IMG/VR virus record: IMGVR_UViG_2563366803_000007
Location: 1-42,967 of that record
Length of the DNA stretch: 42,967 nucleotides
DNA from: a virus
Lineage: Duplodnaviria; Heunggongvirae; Uroviricota; Caudoviricetes
Direction: 5' to 3' (one strand)
In this document: one piece after another, positions 6,468-42,967 of the stretch
Numbering within the stretch: position 1 is the first letter of the stretch
Layout: each line of letters starts with the position of its first letter
The notes under the pieces: model-generated
The model's input: the letters and a program-made list of their open reading frames with translations, nothing else
Told to the model about the DNA's origin: nothing
Database searches by the model: none
Program-made: the position numbers and the translations under genes

Positions 6468-6820
6468 TACGCCTCCGAAGTTACTGTGGTTGTCCCGTAG
6501 ATGGTTTCCACCGTTGCTGTGAACGTTACACGGCGCGTGGTACCGTCAACGGTAGTGTTAAATGCAGTGATTGAGCTAACCCCCTGCGTTTCGAGGATCC
6601 GCTTACGGATAGCGAGGTTGTAGGTATCCGGTTTTTGCTTACCCAGAACGGACTGAATCCACGGGGTTCCCTCCGTGGTATCGAGGAACCACTGCCCGTA
6701 CCAAAGCAGAAAGCGCGTTTTTATGGCCTGCGCGACAGCCTCTGGGGAGTTAACCAGCCACGTATCATCGCCCTGACCGAAGGTGTAATCCCCATCGTCA
6801 TCTTCTCGACGGTATCGCAT
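6467..6820 (-). CDS. Baseplate W/gp25-like protein (117 aa from ATG at 6818..6820)
   Basis: GGAGGA RBS 5 nt before the internal ATG; ATG overlaps stop of upstream gene; the track ORF extends further upstream. Confidence 0.5.
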   Translation of the reverse strand: MRYRREDDDGDYTFGQGDDTWLVNSPEAVAQAIKTRFLLWYGQWFLDTTEGTPWIQSVLGKQKPDTYNLAIRKRILETQGVSSITAFNTTVDGTTRRVTFTATVETIYGTTTVTSEA

Positions 6821-6821
6821 A

Positions 6822-7475
6822 TCATCCTCCGAGTGGTGCTGTACTGCTGCTACCAGGCTCAACGCCACCATGCGTATGCTTATCAACGACTGAGCCATCC
6901 ACCAGCTGCAGGCGGCCGTCAGAAAGAATTTTAAGCCCGTTCAGGTTAAAACCTCCCGGCGCCGTGCCGTTGATAGCTCCACTGGCAGGATTAAGGCTCA
7001 ACTTTGTTTCCCCGTCATCACTGCGCAGCTCTACCGCACTGGTGCTGATACCGCCGATTTTCTTCGCCTGCGACTGCGGGCCGACAATGCAGAAGGCATC
7101 GGATAAATCATGCATGCGCTCGTCTACCGGCTCCTGAATACCCCCACTCTGCCACCAGAAATCAATACAGCGGTCCGCAAAGATAACAAGGCATTCATCA
7201 CCAGCTTTAACAGGAAAAGTCAGCGTGCAACCTCCGCCGCGAGGGAAGATGACAGGAACATCTACCAGTAGCGGGAGGTTTACCGATACCTCGGCGCCGG
7301 ATTCGTCCTGCTCTGCGCCTTTAATGGCTGGCTGAACAACAGCGGTGACGGCGTCCGGATCAAACGACTGAATGATGCCAGGCATGGCTACGCGCATTGC
7401 AGACATGATCGCCTGCGCCAGCTGTGCGTCTGCCTGCTCTTTACTGCCGAGCTGGGAGTTTAGTGCTACGGGCAT
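6822..7475 (-). CDS. Baseplate spike/assembly protein V-like (217 aa from ATG at 7473..7475)
   Basis: Position upstream of W/J-like genes; GGAG RBS before second ATG; first ATG at 7493 directly follows a terminator T-run with no RBS. Confidence 0.5.
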   Translation of the reverse strand: MPVALNSQLGSKEQADAQLAQAIMSAMRVAMPGIIQSFDPDAVTAVVQPAIKGAEQDESGAEVSVNLPLLVDVPVIFPRGGGCTLTFPVKAGDECLVIFADRCIDFWWQSGGIQEPVDERMHDLSDAFCIVGPQSQAKKIGGISTSAVELRSDDGETKLSLNPASGAINGTAPGGFNLNGLKILSDGRLQLVDGSVVDKHTHGGVEPGSSSTAPLGG

Positions 7476-7494
7476 TTGGGTTACTCCGGGCATT

Positions 7495-7514
7495 AAAAAA
7501 CCCGCCGGAGCGGG
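7495..7514 (-). terminator. Rho-independent terminator downstream of the Doc gene
   Basis: Minus-strand hairpin CCCGC-TCCG-GCGGG followed by TTTTTT. Confidence 0.55.
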
Positions 7515-7543
7515 TTGCGATTAGAAGGGATAAACAAGGCCTG

Positions 7544-7951
7544 TCAGTATCCATAAATCGTATCAGCTAAGAGGTCGTTTTTATAATTTGATAGCAGCTT
7601 CAAGGCCAGTGCTGTGCTATCACAATCAGCCTCTCCCGTTGCTGCAAAAACTGTCAATTTTACTAACTCTATGGATGTATTAAGCTCATATCCATTCATA
7701 AGCAAAAACACACTCGCGGCCTGAAACGCGGTCCTCTTATTTGCATCATTAAAAGCATGAGATTTCGCTATAGATACCATATACATCGCAGCAAACTTGA
7801 ATAAGTCTTCACACCCTTCATACATACGCAAATTGTGGACTCTGTTAAGGGCGCCCTCCAACTTCCCTCGATCAGGTTCTCCGCTCTTCGGAAGGGTTGT
7901 TTTCTGGATGGTAATTACCTCTTCGACTGAAAGAAATACAATCTCATCCAT
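7544..7951 (-). CDS. doc: Doc/Fic-family toxin (135 aa)
   Basis: Fic motif HAFNDANKRTA; overall similarity to P1 Doc; start overlaps antitoxin stop. Confidence 0.8.
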   Translation of the reverse strand: MDEIVFLSVEEVITIQKTTLPKSGEPDRGKLEGALNRVHNLRMYEGCEDLFKFAAMYMVSIAKSHAFNDANKRTAFQAASVFLLMNGYELNTSIELVKLTVFAATGEADCDSTALALKLLSNYKNDLLADTIYGY

Positions 7952-8364
7952 TATTTATCTTCCAGTTTTTTAATGATATCTGCATGCCGTGTCTGAGTAT
8001 GTTGCAAAGCCTTGATAAACGATTCAGAAACACCCTGAAGAGCAATTGCCGTATTGGCTACCTTCGTTAAAGCTTGGCGAGCCTCATCAGACCTGAGAAG
8101 GTCATCTAATTGCTTAGTAAGCCGCATAATGCCCTCCCGCGTCTGTGGTGATATATTCGATGTAATCAACTGCGCAAGCTGCGTATCCAGTTTCTTGGAT
8201 GTAGGCTTAATTTCCTTAGCTATCAACTGACAATTGTCAGGCTCTCCACGAAGAATGAGATCAGGCTTACCCCGCTGAGTGACAGTTACACTTTCACCAG
8301 AACGCAGCAGCTCTAGCGTTGCAGATAAATCGGTTCTCATTTGTGTGTAAGTAATAGTTTTCAT
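7951..8364 (-). CDS. Phd/YefM-like antitoxin with long helical C-terminal extension (138 aa from ATG at 8362..8364)
   Basis: N-terminus MKTITYTQMRTDLSATLELLRSGESVTVTQRGKPDLIL is Phd/YefM-like; AGAGGGGG RBS; immediately upstream of Doc. Confidence 0.65.
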   Translation of the reverse strand: MKTITYTQMRTDLSATLELLRSGESVTVTQRGKPDLILRGEPDNCQLIAKEIKPTSKKLDTQLAQLITSNISPQTREGIMRLTKQLDDLLRSDEARQALTKVANTAIALQGVSESFIKALQHTQTRHADIIKKLEDK

Positions 8365-8374
8365 TATGCCCCCT

Positions 8375-8388
8375 CTGTACATGTACAG
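8375..8388. promoter_or_regulatory. Perfect 14-bp palindrome CTGTACATGTACAG overlapping the antitoxin RBS (putative TA operator); -35-like TTGACT about 20 bp upstream
   Basis: Palindrome read directly from the sequence; location typical for TA autoregulation. Confidence 0.4.
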
Positions 8389-8451
8389 ATTAGCGCATAA
8401 TTAGAAGTCAAGAGCAATGAGGCTCTATAGAAAAGTCGGGGGCTGCCGTCT

Positions 8452-8793
8452 CTACTTAACTCTCTGACAGTCGTACGTCCAGAACTCTCTGGGCTCGTCC
8501 ATGTTCTTGCGGATCACTTCGACGTTGAGGATGGCCTTATTGTTGCGCTTAACGTAGTCGAGACCTAGCCAACGCCCTGTTTTGGCGTCTGGGAGCATCC
8601 ATTGCATCATGACGTTATCGAAGTCGTCTTTTTGCTTGAGGAAGGTCATTTTCTGCGTTTCAGGGGCTTGTCCGTTGATATGCATCAACCCATCGCTTTC
8701 GCCCTTTAAGAAAAAAGGTCCGCATTGAGTGGCAGAAAAAGCTCCGCAGGAATAAAACAACCCAAAGACCAAAAATATTCCTAATTTTTTCAT
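8452..8793 (-). CDS. Small secreted hypothetical protein with N-terminal signal peptide (113 aa)
   Basis: N-terminus MKKLGIFLVFGLFYSCGAFSA is signal-peptide-like; ATG overlaps the stop of the upstream baseplate gene. Confidence 0.5.
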   Translation of the reverse strand: MKKLGIFLVFGLFYSCGAFSATQCGPFFLKGESDGLMHINGQAPETQKMTFLKQKDDFDNVMMQWMLPDAKTGRWLGLDYVKRNNKAILNVEVIRKNMDEPREFWTYDCQRVK

Positions 8794-9815
8794 CAGCCAA
8801 CCTTGTTTAAAGTGCTCAGGCTTTGCAGTTCTCTAGCCCCTTTCGCCAGACACAGCAGGTCCATATACCACGCCTGCCCGCGAGTATCGCCAGTATAGTC
8901 AATGCTGCCGACAATGTAATCACCGTCGGTATTGATTGCCGCCAGCTGCGACCCGGGAAGCCCATCGACATAGATGTTACCGTCTGTGGTACTTTCGCCT
9001 AAGATACCTGGTGACTGGCCAACCTGGTCATTACCGAGAGCCTGACGATATACAGAGGCCTGATCCAGCCTGATAAGCCCACCAAGCTTAATATTCGGGT
9101 TTATCAGACAGCGCACATTTACCCCGGCGCCCATCGTCTGCTGAGGCATACCGATCAGGCCCGTATTGGCGTTCAGTACAATCGCTTCCTGTATGTACTT
9201 ATCATCAGGAACAATATGCACCTGGTTGTTTTCGTACCACCAGTTAGCCTTACATTGCCCTGCAAGGCTGTACATCAGGCGTCCAGTGTTCTGATAAATA
9301 GTGCGGCCGCGGGGGAATACAGTTGGACCAAAATCCGGCCTGCTTCCCTCTGTAATGCCATAAGGGCTAAGGGACTGCATACCCAAATCAAACAGGTCAG
9401 CATGCTTCCAGCCTGCCGATACTGTCGTTTTCACGCTGGCGTTGAGATGCCCCTCCCAGCCATCAATACACTGGATGAGCACCCAACTATCGGTGACGTT
9501 ATCTTTTCCGGTAACGGTAAAGCGAATATCACCGTTAAAGATGATCCCCACATTTTTATCAGGATAGTTACCACTGCTGTCTGCTGTGCCGTTATACCCG
9601 GCAATAGCCCTTACACGAGTAAACTCTTTACCCATGATCCGGTTTTGTGTCTCCGGCGACAGATTGTAGATTTTGAAGTTACCCACGAATCCGTTAAAGA
9701 TAGTCGCGGGCATCTTCTGGATATTAAACGTCACCTTAAAATCCGACAGCGAAACCCCATCACCCTTGTCGTCAATAAGCTGCAGCTCAAAGTGCCGCAT
9801 CCAGTTCTGAGACAT
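8793..9815 (-). CDS. Baseplate hub/tail protein (340 aa from ATG at 9813..9815)
   Basis: GGAG RBS before ATG; track ORF begins at an upstream GTG; position between tape measure and baseplate genes. Confidence 0.5.
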   Translation of the reverse strand: MSQNWMRHFELQLIDDKGDGVSLSDFKVTFNIQKMPATIFNGFVGNFKIYNLSPETQNRIMGKEFTRVRAIAGYNGTADSSGNYPDKNVGIIFNGDIRFTVTGKDNVTDSWVLIQCIDGWEGHLNASVKTTVSAGWKHADLFDLGMQSLSPYGITEGSRPDFGPTVFPRGRTIYQNTGRLMYSLAGQCKANWWYENNQVHIVPDDKYIQEAIVLNANTGLIGMPQQTMGAGVNVRCLINPNIKLGGLIRLDQASVYRQALGNDQVGQSPGILGESTTDGNIYVDGLPGSQLAAINTDGDYIVGSIDYTGDTRGQAWYMDLLCLAKGARELQSLSTLNKVG

Positions 9816-9817
9816 AA

Positions 9818-10120
9818 TCACTCCGTTACTGCGTAGAGATGGCTTTTAATGCCGAGGTCGGTTTGGGTTGGATTATCATTTGCCGGGTCGTCGCAATTGA
9901 CATAGAGCGAAAAGCCAAGCCCGAGATAGCGATACTGCGCCAGCAGGTTGGCGCCGGTGATAAGCGGGATCCCCTTTATCAGGTCGGCCCCGGTACTGTC
10001 CATAATATCCAGACACCAGAAAGCAGCACGCCAGGTGACAGCCATTTGCAGGCTTTGACCTGCAACAGATATGGAGAATCGCTGGTTTTCTGGTGATAGA
10101 GGGATTTCTGAAACAGCCAT
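9818..10120 (-). CDS. Tail protein (100 aa)
   Basis: Tightly packed in the tail operon downstream of the tape measure gene. Confidence 0.45.
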   Translation of the reverse strand: MAVSEIPLSPENQRFSISVAGQSLQMAVTWRAAFWCLDIMDSTGADLIKGIPLITGANLLAQYRYLGLGFSLYVNCDDPANDNPTQTDLGIKSHLYAVTE

Positions 10121-26626: not shown

Positions 26627-26702
26627 TGGTGCTGGTTAACGGACTTGAACCGCTACCCATTCGCTTACAAGGCGACTGCTCTACCATTGGAGCTAAACCA
26701 GC
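26627..26702 (-). tRNA. tRNA-Thr (anticodon UGU), phage-encoded
   Basis: Manual cloverleaf: 7-bp acceptor stem GCTGGTT/AACCAGC, D stem GCTC/GAGC, anticodon loop CTTGTAA, T loop TTCAAGT, 3' ACCA encoded. Confidence 0.6.
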
Positions 26703-26707
26703 ATATT

Positions 26708-26782
26708 TGGCGGGACAGCGTGGACTCGAACCACGATAAGAAGGTTAACAGCCTTCCGTAATGACCTTTATACGACTGACCC
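26708..26782 (-). tRNA. tRNA-Asn-like (anticodon GUU), possibly degenerate
   Basis: Manual cloverleaf: anticodon stem GAAGG/CCTTC, loop CTGTTAA, T arm CGTGG-TTCGAGT-CCACG, CCA encoded; one mismatch each in acceptor and D stems. Confidence 0.45.
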
Positions 26783-26873: not shown

Positions 26874-27362
26874 CTATGCTACATGTTTAATTTTCTCTAC
26901 ACGTTTCCGGTTTTTAAACGCACTATCCAGAACCGGGTAAATCATAAACAACGAGGCATTGAGGATTTCGTCAACTTCCCGTCGACAGGTTGCGAGCGAT
27001 GGTTTTTGAATGCGCCCGCCGCCCCGGCATAACATCTTGCGAGGTCTTGCGACGCGATGATAGTAAGATGCAATGGCGTGCTTGGAAGAGCCGTGGGCGT
27101 AGTAGCTGAGGAGGATGCCAAAGGCTTTCTTGTCAATGTACATGACGGAATCGACGACCTGAGAAATCAACATTCCATCATCATCATTACACATTGGCCT
27201 TGTCATAACTCTTCCCGGCTCTACGCTCTCCATGAACTTCGCTATTACGCTGCTCATGCGCTTTTCCAGGCGGCCTGAATAAACCCATGCGCCCCACAGT
27301 TCAAGCCAGCCATTCAGCCACTCATGCTGTTCTTTGGTGAGGTTTAGTTCTCTTATGCCCAT
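26874..27362 (-). CDS. Late-gene antiterminator Q-like protein (162 aa from ATG at 27360..27362); not lambda Q
   Basis: Position between ninG and the lysis cassette; GGGAGAAGG RBS; Cys-containing C-terminal region. Confidence 0.6.
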   Translation of the reverse strand: MGIRELNLTKEQHEWLNGWLELWGAWVYSGRLEKRMSSVIAKFMESVEPGRVMTRPMCNDDDGMLISQVVDSVMYIDKKAFGILLSYYAHGSSKHAIASYYHRVARPRKMLCRGGGRIQKPSLATCRREVDEILNASLFMIYPVLDSAFKNRKRVEKIKHVA

Positions 27363-27405
27363 GCGCCTTCTCCCTTGTGATCTGGAATGGTTTTTACTGA
27401 GAACG

Positions 27406-28011
27406 TCATGCGGCCTCACTTCTGCTGTTTCGCAGGTCTTTGAGTTTCTGCTGATACTCCGCCTTGATGGCCCTGCACTCTTCGACAGTCCAGCGATGGC
27501 GGTTATGGTTTGATTCGATTTCGTCTACTGCTTCCTGCCCGATGCGGTTAATCAGTTCGACGCGATACGGAACGAGATTTCCGCTTTTGTGCTGGTTGCA
27601 CACCACGCATTGCTTGTGAATATTGCGTTCATCAAATCGGAGTTGAGGTGCCGCAGCAGTTGTCCGGTAATGCCCGGCATCCCACTGAGCAGACGTGAGC
27701 GTTCCGCACGAGATACATGGTAAGTCGCGGTCTCTTTCTCTGATGAAGGCGTTTACGGCTTGTTGGGCTTGTTTAATCCAGTAACTGCGGGGCTTTAAGG
27801 CGAGTTTTCGAATCTTAAGTTTATCTTTCTGTTTCTGCTCCTCTCGTCGTCGTTTCTTCTCTGCTGCTTTTTCCGCTTTTTTTCGCTGTTTACTTTGTAG
27901 TTTGAGTGCTAACTGAGTTCCGTGTTCCGGGCAGCACCACCACTGATTTGAGAATGCCGGGTGAAACCATTCCTTGCATATTTTGCATTTCCTTCGCGCT
28001 GGTTTAGCCAT
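27406..28011 (-). CDS. ninG: NinG/Rap recombination-promoting nuclease (201 aa)
   Basis: Near-identical to lambda NinG as remembered (MAKPARR...[44 protein letters not shown]). Confidence 0.9.
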
Positions 28012-41707: not shown

Positions 41708-42967
41708 ATGAGTAAAGAATCATACCCAACGGGCGTTGAGAACCACGGAAAGTCACTCCGCATATGGTTCATTTTTAAAGGTAAGCGTGTCAGGGAAAAC
41801 CTCGGTGTCCCTGACACCGCTAAAAACAGGAAGGTGGCCGGGGAGCTGAGAACGTCAGTTTGTTTCGCTATCCGCATGGGGACCTTTGACTATGCGGCCC
41901 AATTCCCCAACTCGCCAAATCTGAAAACTTTCGGCATCGGGAAGAAAGATATCACCGTAAAAGATCTGTCTGAAAAATGGCTTGAGCTTAAACGGATGGA
42001 GATCTGCGCTAATGCCATAAACAGGTATGAATCGGTGGTGAGAAGCATGCTGCCGAGGGTTGGCGCGAATAAGCTGGTTTCGTCTGTGACAAGAGAAGAG
42101 CTTCTCTATATCAGGAAGGATATGCTGGCGGGGGATAAAGGGTTGAGTGTGGTGACGGTAAACTACTACATGACCACGATCGCGGGTATGTTTCAGTTCG
42201 CTGTTGATAATGGCTATGTGAGTGAAAACCCGTTTAACGGCATCAAGCCGCTAAAGAGGGCCAGGATAGAACCAGATCCGCTCACACGTGATGAATTCGT
42301 TCGCTTCATAGATGCCTGCAAGCATCAGCAAACGAAAAACCTGTGGTCAATTGCGGTATACACAGGATTACGTCACGGTGAGTTGGTATCCCTCGCATGG
42401 GAAGACATAGATCTGAAAACTGGAACGATGACCATACGCCGGAATTATACGAAACTCGGTGATTTCACTCTACCAAAAACCGAAGCCGGTACCGACAGGG
42501 TCGTTCACCTGATCAAGCCAGCCATTGACGCTTTGAGGAACCAGGCGGAAATGACCAGGTTAGGCAGGCAGTATCAGGTTGAGGTACAACTGCGGGAGTA
42601 TGGCCGAACGGTCATTCACGACTGTACATTTGTGTTCAATCCTCAGTTGGTTAAAAAAAGTGGCAGCGTAGGTTACCTGTACAAAGCCGATTCAGTTGGT
42701 GACTCATGGGATGCGGCGCTTAAACGGTCAGGTTTAAGGCACCGCAAGGCGTATCAGTCGAGACACACTTACGCCTGCTGGTCGCTGTCTGCCGGGGCCA
42801 ATCCGAGTTTCATTGCCAGCCAGATGGGACACTCCAGCGCCCAGATGGTTTTCAATGTTTACGGCGCCTGGATGGCCGACAGCAGCAGCGATCAGATTGC
42901 TATGTTGAACCAGAAATTATCGGACTTTGCCCCATCCATGCCCCACGGCATGGCGATAGGAATATGA
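41708..42967 (+). CDS. int: Tyrosine integrase (Rac IntR-like family, 419 aa)
   Basis: C-terminal catalytic region with YTGLRHGE, HTYACWSLSAGANPSFIASQMGHSSAQMVFNVY blocks; strong resemblance to Rac IntR from memory. Confidence 0.9.
   Translation: MSKESYPTGVENHGKSLRIWFIFKGKRVRENLGVPDTAKNRKVAGELRTSVCFAIRMGTFDYAAQFPNSPNLKTFGIGKKDITVKDLSEKWLELKRMEICANAINRYESVVRSMLPRVGANKLVSSVTREELLYIRKDMLAGDKGLSVVTVNYYMTTIAGMFQFAVDNGYVSENPFNGIKPLKRARIEPDPLTRDEFVRFIDACKHQQTKNLWSIAVYTGLRHGELVSLAWEDIDLKTGTMTIRRNYTKLGDFTLPKTEAGTDRVVHLIKPAIDALRNQAEMTRLGRQYQVEVQLREYGRTVIHDCTFVFNPQLVKKSGSVGYLYKADSVGDSWDAALKRSGLRHRKAYQSRHTYACWSLSAGANPSFIASQMGHSSAQMVFNVYGAWMADSSSDQIAMLNQKLSDFAPSMPHGMAIGI

Follow-up and report, generated by a model that had tools for sequence, protein, structure and literature searches.

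The 42,967-nucleotide (nt) stretch of viral DNA analyzed here (IMG/VR record IMGVR_UViG_2563366803_000007, positions 1 to 42,967; hereafter the window) carries, inside its tail gene cluster, a two-gene cassette encoding a Phd-type antitoxin and a Doc toxin. Our reading is that this cassette is very probably an autonomous, autoregulated type II Phd/Doc toxin-antitoxin (TA) module that occupies, as a moron, a dedicated cargo slot of the SEN34-like tail module of a lambdoid prophage. RefSeq already lists both proteins, under the names 'Phd/YefM family antitoxin' and 'death-on-curing family toxin', and the module matters little by itself, as Phd/Doc modules and TA morons of prophages are well known. 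There is modest novelty in the narrow subfamily of long antitoxins, in the invariant operator made of fused TGTACA boxes and in the recognition of the slot as a general cargo hotspot.

The toxin and its long antitoxin

The initial annotation had read the downstream gene as a Doc/Fic toxin with the motif HAFNDANKRTA, and this was borne out. The protein matched Pfam Fic/DOC (PF02661) at 1.4e-11 (45.5 bits, cutoff 24) and NCBIfam TIGR01550 (DOC_P1) at 80.7 bits (cutoff 38.65); it aligned over 113 residues with the crystal-structure sequence of P1 Doc (3k33, E=1.2e-19), the FNDANKRTA core being identical, and its PHROGs match was phrog_577, 'Doc-like toxin' (8e-34). The catalytic loop is intact: H65-A-F-N-D-A-N-K-R73 corresponds column for column to HIFNDANKR of P1 Doc and fits H-x-F-x-[DN]-[AG]-N-K-R. 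Among the homologs found in the tail slot, nonsynonymous divergence (pN) of doc was 0.03-0.13 and synonymous divergence (pS) 0.65-0.95, with synonymous sites saturated; dN/dS was about 0.02-0.03, and Doc is under strong purifying selection. Doc toxins phosphorylate EF-Tu at Thr382 and are toxic if expressed alone. In one E. coli lineage (locus L007, 6414-6791) Doc was called at 125 amino acids (aa) versus 135 aa here, a possible C-terminal truncation, and the antitoxin alongside it is intact.

The upstream gene had been described as an antitoxin with a Phd/YefM-like N-terminus and a helical C-terminal extension of about 65 aa, and both parts of that description held. Pfam PhdYeFM (PF02604) matched residues 1-48 only (31.5 bits, cutoff 29.8), and hhalign aligned residues 1-43 with P1 Phd at 92% probability. 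In an AlphaFold2 model built with 23 homologs, residues 1-39 were confident (pLDDT ~88) and residues 44-59 disordered, followed by four helices; the top Foldseek match was the P1 Phd N-domain (4zlx_A), with a root-mean-square deviation of 0.8 Å over 39 columns and a TM(target) of 0.77. Since P1 Phd is 73 aa long (its sequence was checked) and the antitoxin here is 137 aa, the extension amounts to 64 aa.

The family alignment divides the antitoxin into four parts: the N-domain is nearly invariant, the linker (41-62) hypervariable, the middle (63-110) conserved to a moderate degree and the C-terminus, SESFIKALQHTQT(K/R)HA(D/E)IIKKLEDK, invariant. Nei-Gojobori dN/dS values follow the same division: 0.05-0.07 in the N-domain (residues 1-40) and 0.015-0.06 at the C-terminal end (residues 111-137), versus 0.17-0.87 in the linker and 0.10-0.44 in the middle. 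In Salmonella Phd the experimentally defined hot spots for Doc binding are F56, I59, M60, H63, L67 and L70, of which F56 and L70 are 'gatekeepers' (PMC9207808); P1 Phd has F56, L59, F60, L63 and L70 at these places. The invariant F116, A119, L120, T123, H127 and I130 of the antitoxin are spaced i, +3, +4, +7, +11 and +14, and this hydrophobic register, matched by eye and without a significant sequence alignment, is that of the Phd hot spots. Given the shared spacing, residues 113-137 may form the Doc-neutralizing helix. If they do, the extra length of the antitoxin would be an insertion between two canonical functional parts: about 64-70 aa (the variable linker and two or three helices) separate the N-domain from the conserved helix, which in a short antitoxin of about 73-90 aa would follow the N-domain directly.

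No homolog of this insert was detected outside a tiny family. Searching 1.84 billion representative proteins with the C-terminal 93 aa gave 13 relatives (E<=1e-3), three of which are giant coiled-coil proteins and probably spurious. The full-length family comprises 69 clusters, keeps its length at about 128-157 aa and, among its named members, is confined to Enterobacterales bar one Pseudomonas record. With constrained ends and a freely evolving middle, the long antitoxin is a natural experiment on the length of linker tolerated in a Phd-type antitoxin and on the survival of conditional cooperativity.

The putative operator and promoter

A palindrome at the antitoxin ribosome binding site (RBS) had also been reported. 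It is present and overlaps the Shine-Dalgarno sequence by 2 nt, but the 14-mer originally given is only the core of a perfect 16-bp palindrome, TCTGTACATGTACAGA. This sequence occurs once in the window, where 0.01 matches would be expected by chance even with 2 mismatches allowed. We aligned the upstream region across 11 contexts, namely seven tail-slot lineages, two sites located after the antiterminator gene Q, a Morganella chromosomal site and a plasmid remnant in Pantoea. The TGTACATGTACAG core was the sole invariant block, down to 38% antitoxin identity and with wholly unrelated flanks. Such invariance while the surrounding DNA diverges strongly reinforces the operator reading, as do a core and a layout shared with known systems. 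YefM operators have a TGTACA core (PMC1802561). Upstream of P1 phd the sequence, read directly, is TATAAT-t-GTGTACAC-ataac-GAGTACAC-GAGGTG-ttt-ATG, and that of the cassette, GCTAAT-c-TGTACATGTACA-GAGGGGG-cata-ATG, has the same layout: a -10 hexamer, 1 nt, then a TGTACA-core palindrome before the RBS. A literature search with the P1 operator string found no paper.

Directly 5' of the palindrome we found TGnGCTAAT or TGnACTAAT in 7 contexts and TGaGTTATT at one post-Q Serratia locus; TTG(C/A)(T/C)(C/A/T) sits 17 bp 5' of this putative -10 in 8 of the 11 aligned contexts. The cassette thus probably has its own extended -10 promoter, and these comparisons of sequence are consistent with the antitoxin autoregulating through the TGTACA palindrome between the -10 and the RBS.

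The in-frame ATG at 8382, which gives a 143-aa antitoxin open reading frame (ORF; MYRGGIMKT...), was rejected as a start. It coincides with the center of the palindrome (8380-8382) and, judging by the conserved Shine-Dalgarno sequence and the predicted transcription start, is likely an annotation artifact. Some database entries use a start of this type (P0027 and P0030, 143 aa).

Resemblance to characterized systems is closest for P1 Phd/Doc, with which the cassette also shares the Phd fold of the antitoxin N-domain and the antitoxin-toxin gene order with overlapping stop and start codons. It differs from P1 in the length of the antitoxin, in having one 16-bp perfect palindrome versus two sites 13 bp apart, and in its setting, P1 being a plasmid prophage and the cassette here lying in the tail operon of an integrated one. 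E. coli YefM-YoeB has an antitoxin of the same N-terminal fold family (PF02604) and a TGTACA core near the start codon (PMC1802561), but its toxin is a RelE-fold RNase, unlike the Fic-fold kinase Doc, and its boxes are 12 bp apart center to center whereas those here abut. An operator as unusually clean and invariant as this, consisting of two abutting TGTACA boxes, would offer a simple test of DNA recognition by the Phd fold.

The tail slot and the distribution of the cassette

The window holds genes for a CI-like repressor, O/DnaB replication proteins, NinB, NinG, the antiterminator Q, the small terminase subunit and an integrase (41708-42967), as befits an integrated lambdoid prophage of the Klebsiella/E. 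coli kind. Its late genes, including the contractile-tail module of SEN34-like type, lie on the minus strand. The cassette occupies the interval between a gene of phrog_3443 and the baseplate spike gene (Table 1). The start of the spike gene had been placed at 7493; it is at 7475, preceded by a GGAG RBS and in agreement with PGAP. The two cassette genes are on the minus strand and overlap by one base of stop and start codon (TAATG, junction at 7951). Their GC content is 0.42-0.43 versus 0.50-0.56 in the adjacent tail genes, and at third codon positions (GC3) 0.39-0.42 versus 0.53-0.61. An Rfam search of the cassette found no RNA family. The phrog_3443 gene, which is without an assigned function, is translationally coupled to the baseplate hub gene.

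Table 1. Features of the cassette and of its borders, in window coordinates
Feature	Position	Strand	Evidence or remark
Baseplate spike (spike N-domain and GpV apex), downstream border of the slot	6822..7475	(-)	Pfam PF18352 (4e-45) and PF18946
Predicted intrinsic terminator, AACCCGCuccgGCGGGUUUUUU	7495..7516	(-)	Directly upstream of the spike RBS
Doc toxin, 135 aa	7544..7951	(-)	Pfam Fic/DOC, TIGR01550, PDB 3k33, phrog_577
Phd-type antitoxin, 137 aa	7951..8364	(-)	Phd fold 1-40, variable linker 41-62, helical middle 63-110, invariant C-terminal helix 111-137
Shine-Dalgarno sequence of the antitoxin gene, GAGGGGG	8369..8375	(-)	4 nt before ATG; read from the sequence; GAG(A/G)GG kept in slot homologs
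Putative operator, 16-bp perfect palindrome TCTGTACATGTACAGA	8374..8389		Two abutting TGTACA hexamers
Putative extended -10, TGcGCTAAT	8389..8397	(-)	TG 8397-8396, hexamer 8394-8389; candidate function by comparison
Putative -35 hexamer, TTGCTC	8412..8417	(-)	Read from the alignment
113-aa signal-peptide protein, upstream border of the slot	8452..8793	(-)	phrog_3443; PGAP 'STY1065/STY2022 family phage-derived protein'; in all relatives
Baseplate hub	8793-9821		Upstream of the 113-aa signal-peptide gene

The initial annotation had the cassette interrupting an otherwise tightly coupled tail operon. Its foreign composition and its absence from close relatives agree with an insertion, but the position is not normally empty: the slot was read in ten phage relatives, and in each of them the interval corresponding to window 7476-8451 holds a different and mostly uncharacterized gene, on the opposite strand in two of them, and every relative has the phrog_3443 gene. 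Among Klebsiella phages with flanks about 95-98% identical to those of the window, the slot holds genes for proteins of 188 aa and 61 aa in ST340-VIM1phi10.1, a Zn-ribbon/tRNA_anti-like protein matching a 'Sie-like' PHROG, on the opposite strand, in ST405-OXA48phi1.2, and a 168-aa protein in ST16-OXA48phi5.2. By megablast coverage, the slots themselves not being read, P18-100, ST11-VIM1phi8.3 and ST11-OXA48phi15.1 carry the same 188-aa and 61-aa pair. In more distant members of the SEN34-like module the cargo is a 148-aa protein (Mulock), a 170-aa protein (vB_EcoM-683R1), a DUF4236 protein on the opposite strand (RCIP0034), a 138-aa protein (SEN34), a 266-aa protein (YP3) and a 128-aa exported protein (Omnitron). 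Searches against Pfam and PHROGs left most of the relatives' cargo unassigned, the Zn-ribbon/tRNA_anti-like/Sie-like and DUF4236 proteins being the exceptions, and PADLOC found no system-level match among the cassette and the relatives' cargo genes.

The flanks of the slot are 95-98% nt identical to ST340-VIM1phi10.1; homology breaks at about 7515 and resumes exactly at the stop codon of the phrog_3443 gene (8452/8453). As unrelated cargo was found in each of the ten relatives, the position looks like a general moron/defense hotspot and not the site of a one-off interruption. The slot can take more than a single cargo unit: in the lineage with a 157-aa antitoxin, an additional 117-aa ORF (locus L026, 2087-2440) separates the TA cassette from the gene at the phrog_3443 position. 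In a prophage of E. coli isolate AB66 the cassette and most of the compared tail neighbors are 97-100% identical to the window, versus merely 65% for the phrog_3443 gene, which argues that this gene is itself exchanged as a recombination unit.

A terminator private to the cassette had likewise been proposed. A hairpin and T-run do follow the Doc gene: the predicted terminator has a stem at 7499-7516 (7 pairs, 5 of them G-C, loop of 4) and a T-run at 7495-7500, with a folding energy of -12.9 kcal/mol and z = -2.5. However, homology to the nearest relatives with other cargo runs through it, up to 7514-7516, and similar hairpins precede the spike gene wherever the cargo is co-oriented and are missing from slots with opposite-strand cargo. 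The terminator is therefore a feature of the slot and not of the cassette alone.

Late-operon morons of lambdoid phages, such as gp15 in the tail operon of HK97 (PMC3594210), offer a close precedent: they too are independent units between two late genes, deviate in composition, are absent from close relatives and end in a terminator inside the Q-antiterminated late operon. Absence from close relatives and deviant composition are both found here, and so is a terminator, though it lies in a flank shared with other co-oriented cargo. Such morons differ in encoding a single membrane or exclusion protein as opposed to a two-gene autoregulated TA unit, and the insertion site described here, unlike theirs, is a recurrent, always occupied slot with distinct cargo in each of ten relatives.

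The initial annotation would have been refuted by the cassette being a conserved part of the tail module in all relatives; it is not. None was found in 50,697 phage records, and it is absent from all 20 related phage records. The tail module is present in 416 of 5426 complete E. coli genomes (about 8%) and the cassette in 6 of 5426; about 99% of E. coli module copies are without it. A profile search of genome contigs with the family alignment returned 4 loci only. Nevertheless, the cassette recurs in the tail slot of at least seven deeply diverged lineages, with homologs (46-83% identity for the antitoxin, 80-94% for Doc) in two E. coli clades, Serratia sp. Ag1, Pectobacterium, Pantoea ananatis and the lineage with the 157-aa variant. 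Both doc and the adjacent sheath-initiator gene have saturated synonymous sites, and in every lineage the GC3 of the cassette is below that of the tail genes. Co-divergence of the cassette with the flanking tail genes was weakly correlated (r = 0.3-0.45, versus 0.46 for hub and spike; n = 7, synonymous sites saturated in both), a result compatible either with ancient residence and frequent replacement or with repeated exchange via the conserved borders.

Outside the tail slot, the unit of promoter, operator and genes occurs in a Morganella chromosome, on a plasmid (as a remnant) and after Q. The post-Q copies, in Serratia and Gibbsiella prophages (loci L012-L015 and L023), lie just 3' of Q and are co-oriented with late transcription, in Gibbsiella directly upstream of methyltransferase and holin/lysis genes and in Serratia upstream of HNH, methyltransferase and terminase genes. 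The position just downstream of Q is the classic stx-type moron position. Two decayed copies were seen. On plasmid pC3_1 of Pantoea sp. C3 (locus L019, 3900-5100) the 18-bp operator and the antitoxin N-terminus are intact, the genes are disrupted and a C-terminal fragment of Doc lies about 800 bp off; in Xenorhabdus budapestensis (locus L018, 4013-4201) only the C-terminal 62 aa of the antitoxin are left, without Doc.

Proposed mechanism and possible roles

Working by homology to P1 Phd/Doc at each step, we propose the following scheme. In the lysogen, the weak extended -10 promoter (TTGCTC-17-TGcGCTAAT) would transcribe the antitoxin and Doc genes as a translationally coupled pair. Dimers of the Phd-fold N-domain would bind the TGTACA-TGTACA palindrome, and because the predicted start site lies within the palindrome, which directly adjoins the -10, binding is expected to repress the operon. 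The invariant C-terminal helix (F116...I130) would dock on Doc and block it; upon depletion of the labile antitoxin, free Doc would phosphorylate EF-Tu and arrest translation. The terminator at 7495-7516 would insulate the tail genes from lysogenically expressed cargo by keeping lysogenic transcripts out of the spike and baseplate genes, and in lytic growth, by analogy with lambda, Q-antiterminated late transcription would presumably read through it. Apart from this scheme, the cassette would be exchanged among tail modules via the conserved borders of the slot.

A number of observations weigh against the reading of the cassette as an autonomous, autoregulated Phd/Doc module, the eye-matched register of the C-terminal helix among them. 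The antitoxin scored 17.5 bits against NCBIfam TIGR01552 (phd_fam), under the cutoff of 20.8, despite which PGAP names it 'Phd/YefM family antitoxin'. Beyond residue 43, that is, over the C-terminal ~90 aa, neither hhalign nor a search of PDB sequences detected homology to Phd, the PDB matches beyond the Phd N-domain being insignificant, and the C-terminal helices of the AlphaFold2 model have a pLDDT of only 59-79. A scan of 6800-9900 for consensus sigma-70 promoters gave no match upstream of the antitoxin gene; the proposed -10, GCTAAT, was missed because its second position is not the A that is usual there, and only TTG of the -35 fits the consensus. The centers of the two TGTACA boxes are 6 bp apart; with a spacing of 12 bp for YefM and 13 bp for P1, the binding stoichiometry may differ. 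PADLOC-DB v2 yielded no match to a known system: Doc weakly matched the candidate families PDC-M59B (1e-6), PDC-S23 and PDC-S04, and the antitoxin matched none. Moreover, we infer the toxicity, neutralization, DNA binding and transcription of the cassette.

The absence of a consensus promoter lends support to the view that the pair is not an independent unit but is co-transcribed with the tail operon, its palindrome and hairpin being incidental or acting on late transcripts only. The cassette is indeed co-oriented with the late genes in every phage context, and the terminator is common to relatives with other cargo. However, the upstream block (TTGnnn-17-TGnGCTAAT-palindrome-SD, where SD is the Shine-Dalgarno sequence) recurs with the genes in unrelated settings, one of which is a chromosomal, non-phage site; its layout mirrors the P1 phd promoter-operator; and the opposite-strand cargo of two relatives means that the slot accepts autonomous units. 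We consider co-transcription very unlikely on these grounds. It is harder still to credit that Doc is a tail-associated or injected effector, as encoded beside spike genes in contractile injection systems. Only the position of its gene, directly upstream of that for the membrane-puncturing spike, speaks for this; Doc has a cognate antitoxin with a putative operator and no signal or spike-adaptor domain, the same gene pair occurs away from tail genes, and relatives carry unrelated slot cargo, in some cases in the opposite orientation. An effector role is contradicted by the conserved operator and cognate antitoxin together with the strong purifying selection, and so is the idea that the cassette is a decayed remnant.

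For an autonomous Phd/Doc module, then, the candidate roles are defense, addiction and selfish persistence. We infer that it benefits the lysogen or the prophage, either because other phages are excluded abortively or through stabilization of the addiction type. Under abortive exclusion, shut-off of host expression by an incoming phage would deplete the labile antitoxin, and Doc would halt translation before the invader completes its cycle. We entertain this only tentatively. The cargo of the slot is variable, AT-rich and independently oriented and includes a Sie-like protein; PHROGs places Doc-like toxins in the category 'moron, auxiliary metabolic gene and host takeover'; and the candidate families weakly matched by Doc are PADLOC ones. 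These matches reach E=1e-6 at best and involve no validated defense system, and a literature search on Phd/Doc cassettes in prophage tail/baseplate clusters or in Klebsiella prophages found nothing specific, phage defense by Doc in general not being addressed by that search. Addiction in the sense of post-segregational killing, whereby loss or deletion of the prophage or of its tail segment would be penalized with no part in phage defense, is a somewhat doubtful alternative. It has in its favor that P1 phd-doc, the nearest characterized system (Doc versus P1 Doc, E=1e-19), is a plasmid-prophage addiction module (PMC4803016), and that the cassette persists in the same slot across synonymously saturated lineages, as expected of an element that resists deletion. 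On the other hand, the prophage is integrative, having its own integrase, so that segregational loss should be rare; the cassette is found in just ~1% of E. coli module copies and in 0 of 20 related phage records, and therefore does not prevent its own replacement; and another occupant of the slot resembles a superinfection-exclusion protein, suggesting that the slot collects host-protective cargo.

A more elaborate idea is that the inserted stretch 41-110, a near-neutral linker and a helical middle under moderate constraint, is no passive spacer but serves in sensing or regulation (as an element that binds a trigger, for instance, or a second one that binds Doc) and couples the release of Doc to phage infection or prophage induction, making the pair a dedicated defense or commitment switch co-resident with the tail-module cargo slot across Enterobacterales. 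We regard this as unlikely. Whatever the role of the cassette, exclusion or defense genes expressed in lysogens could conveniently be sought in the slot, as the tail module is found in about 8% of complete E. coli genomes.

Elsewhere in the window, two phage tRNA genes, tRNA-Thr(TGT) and tRNA-Asn(GTT), lie on the minus strand at 26627-26782, just 3' of Q (26874-27419) at the head of the late operon.

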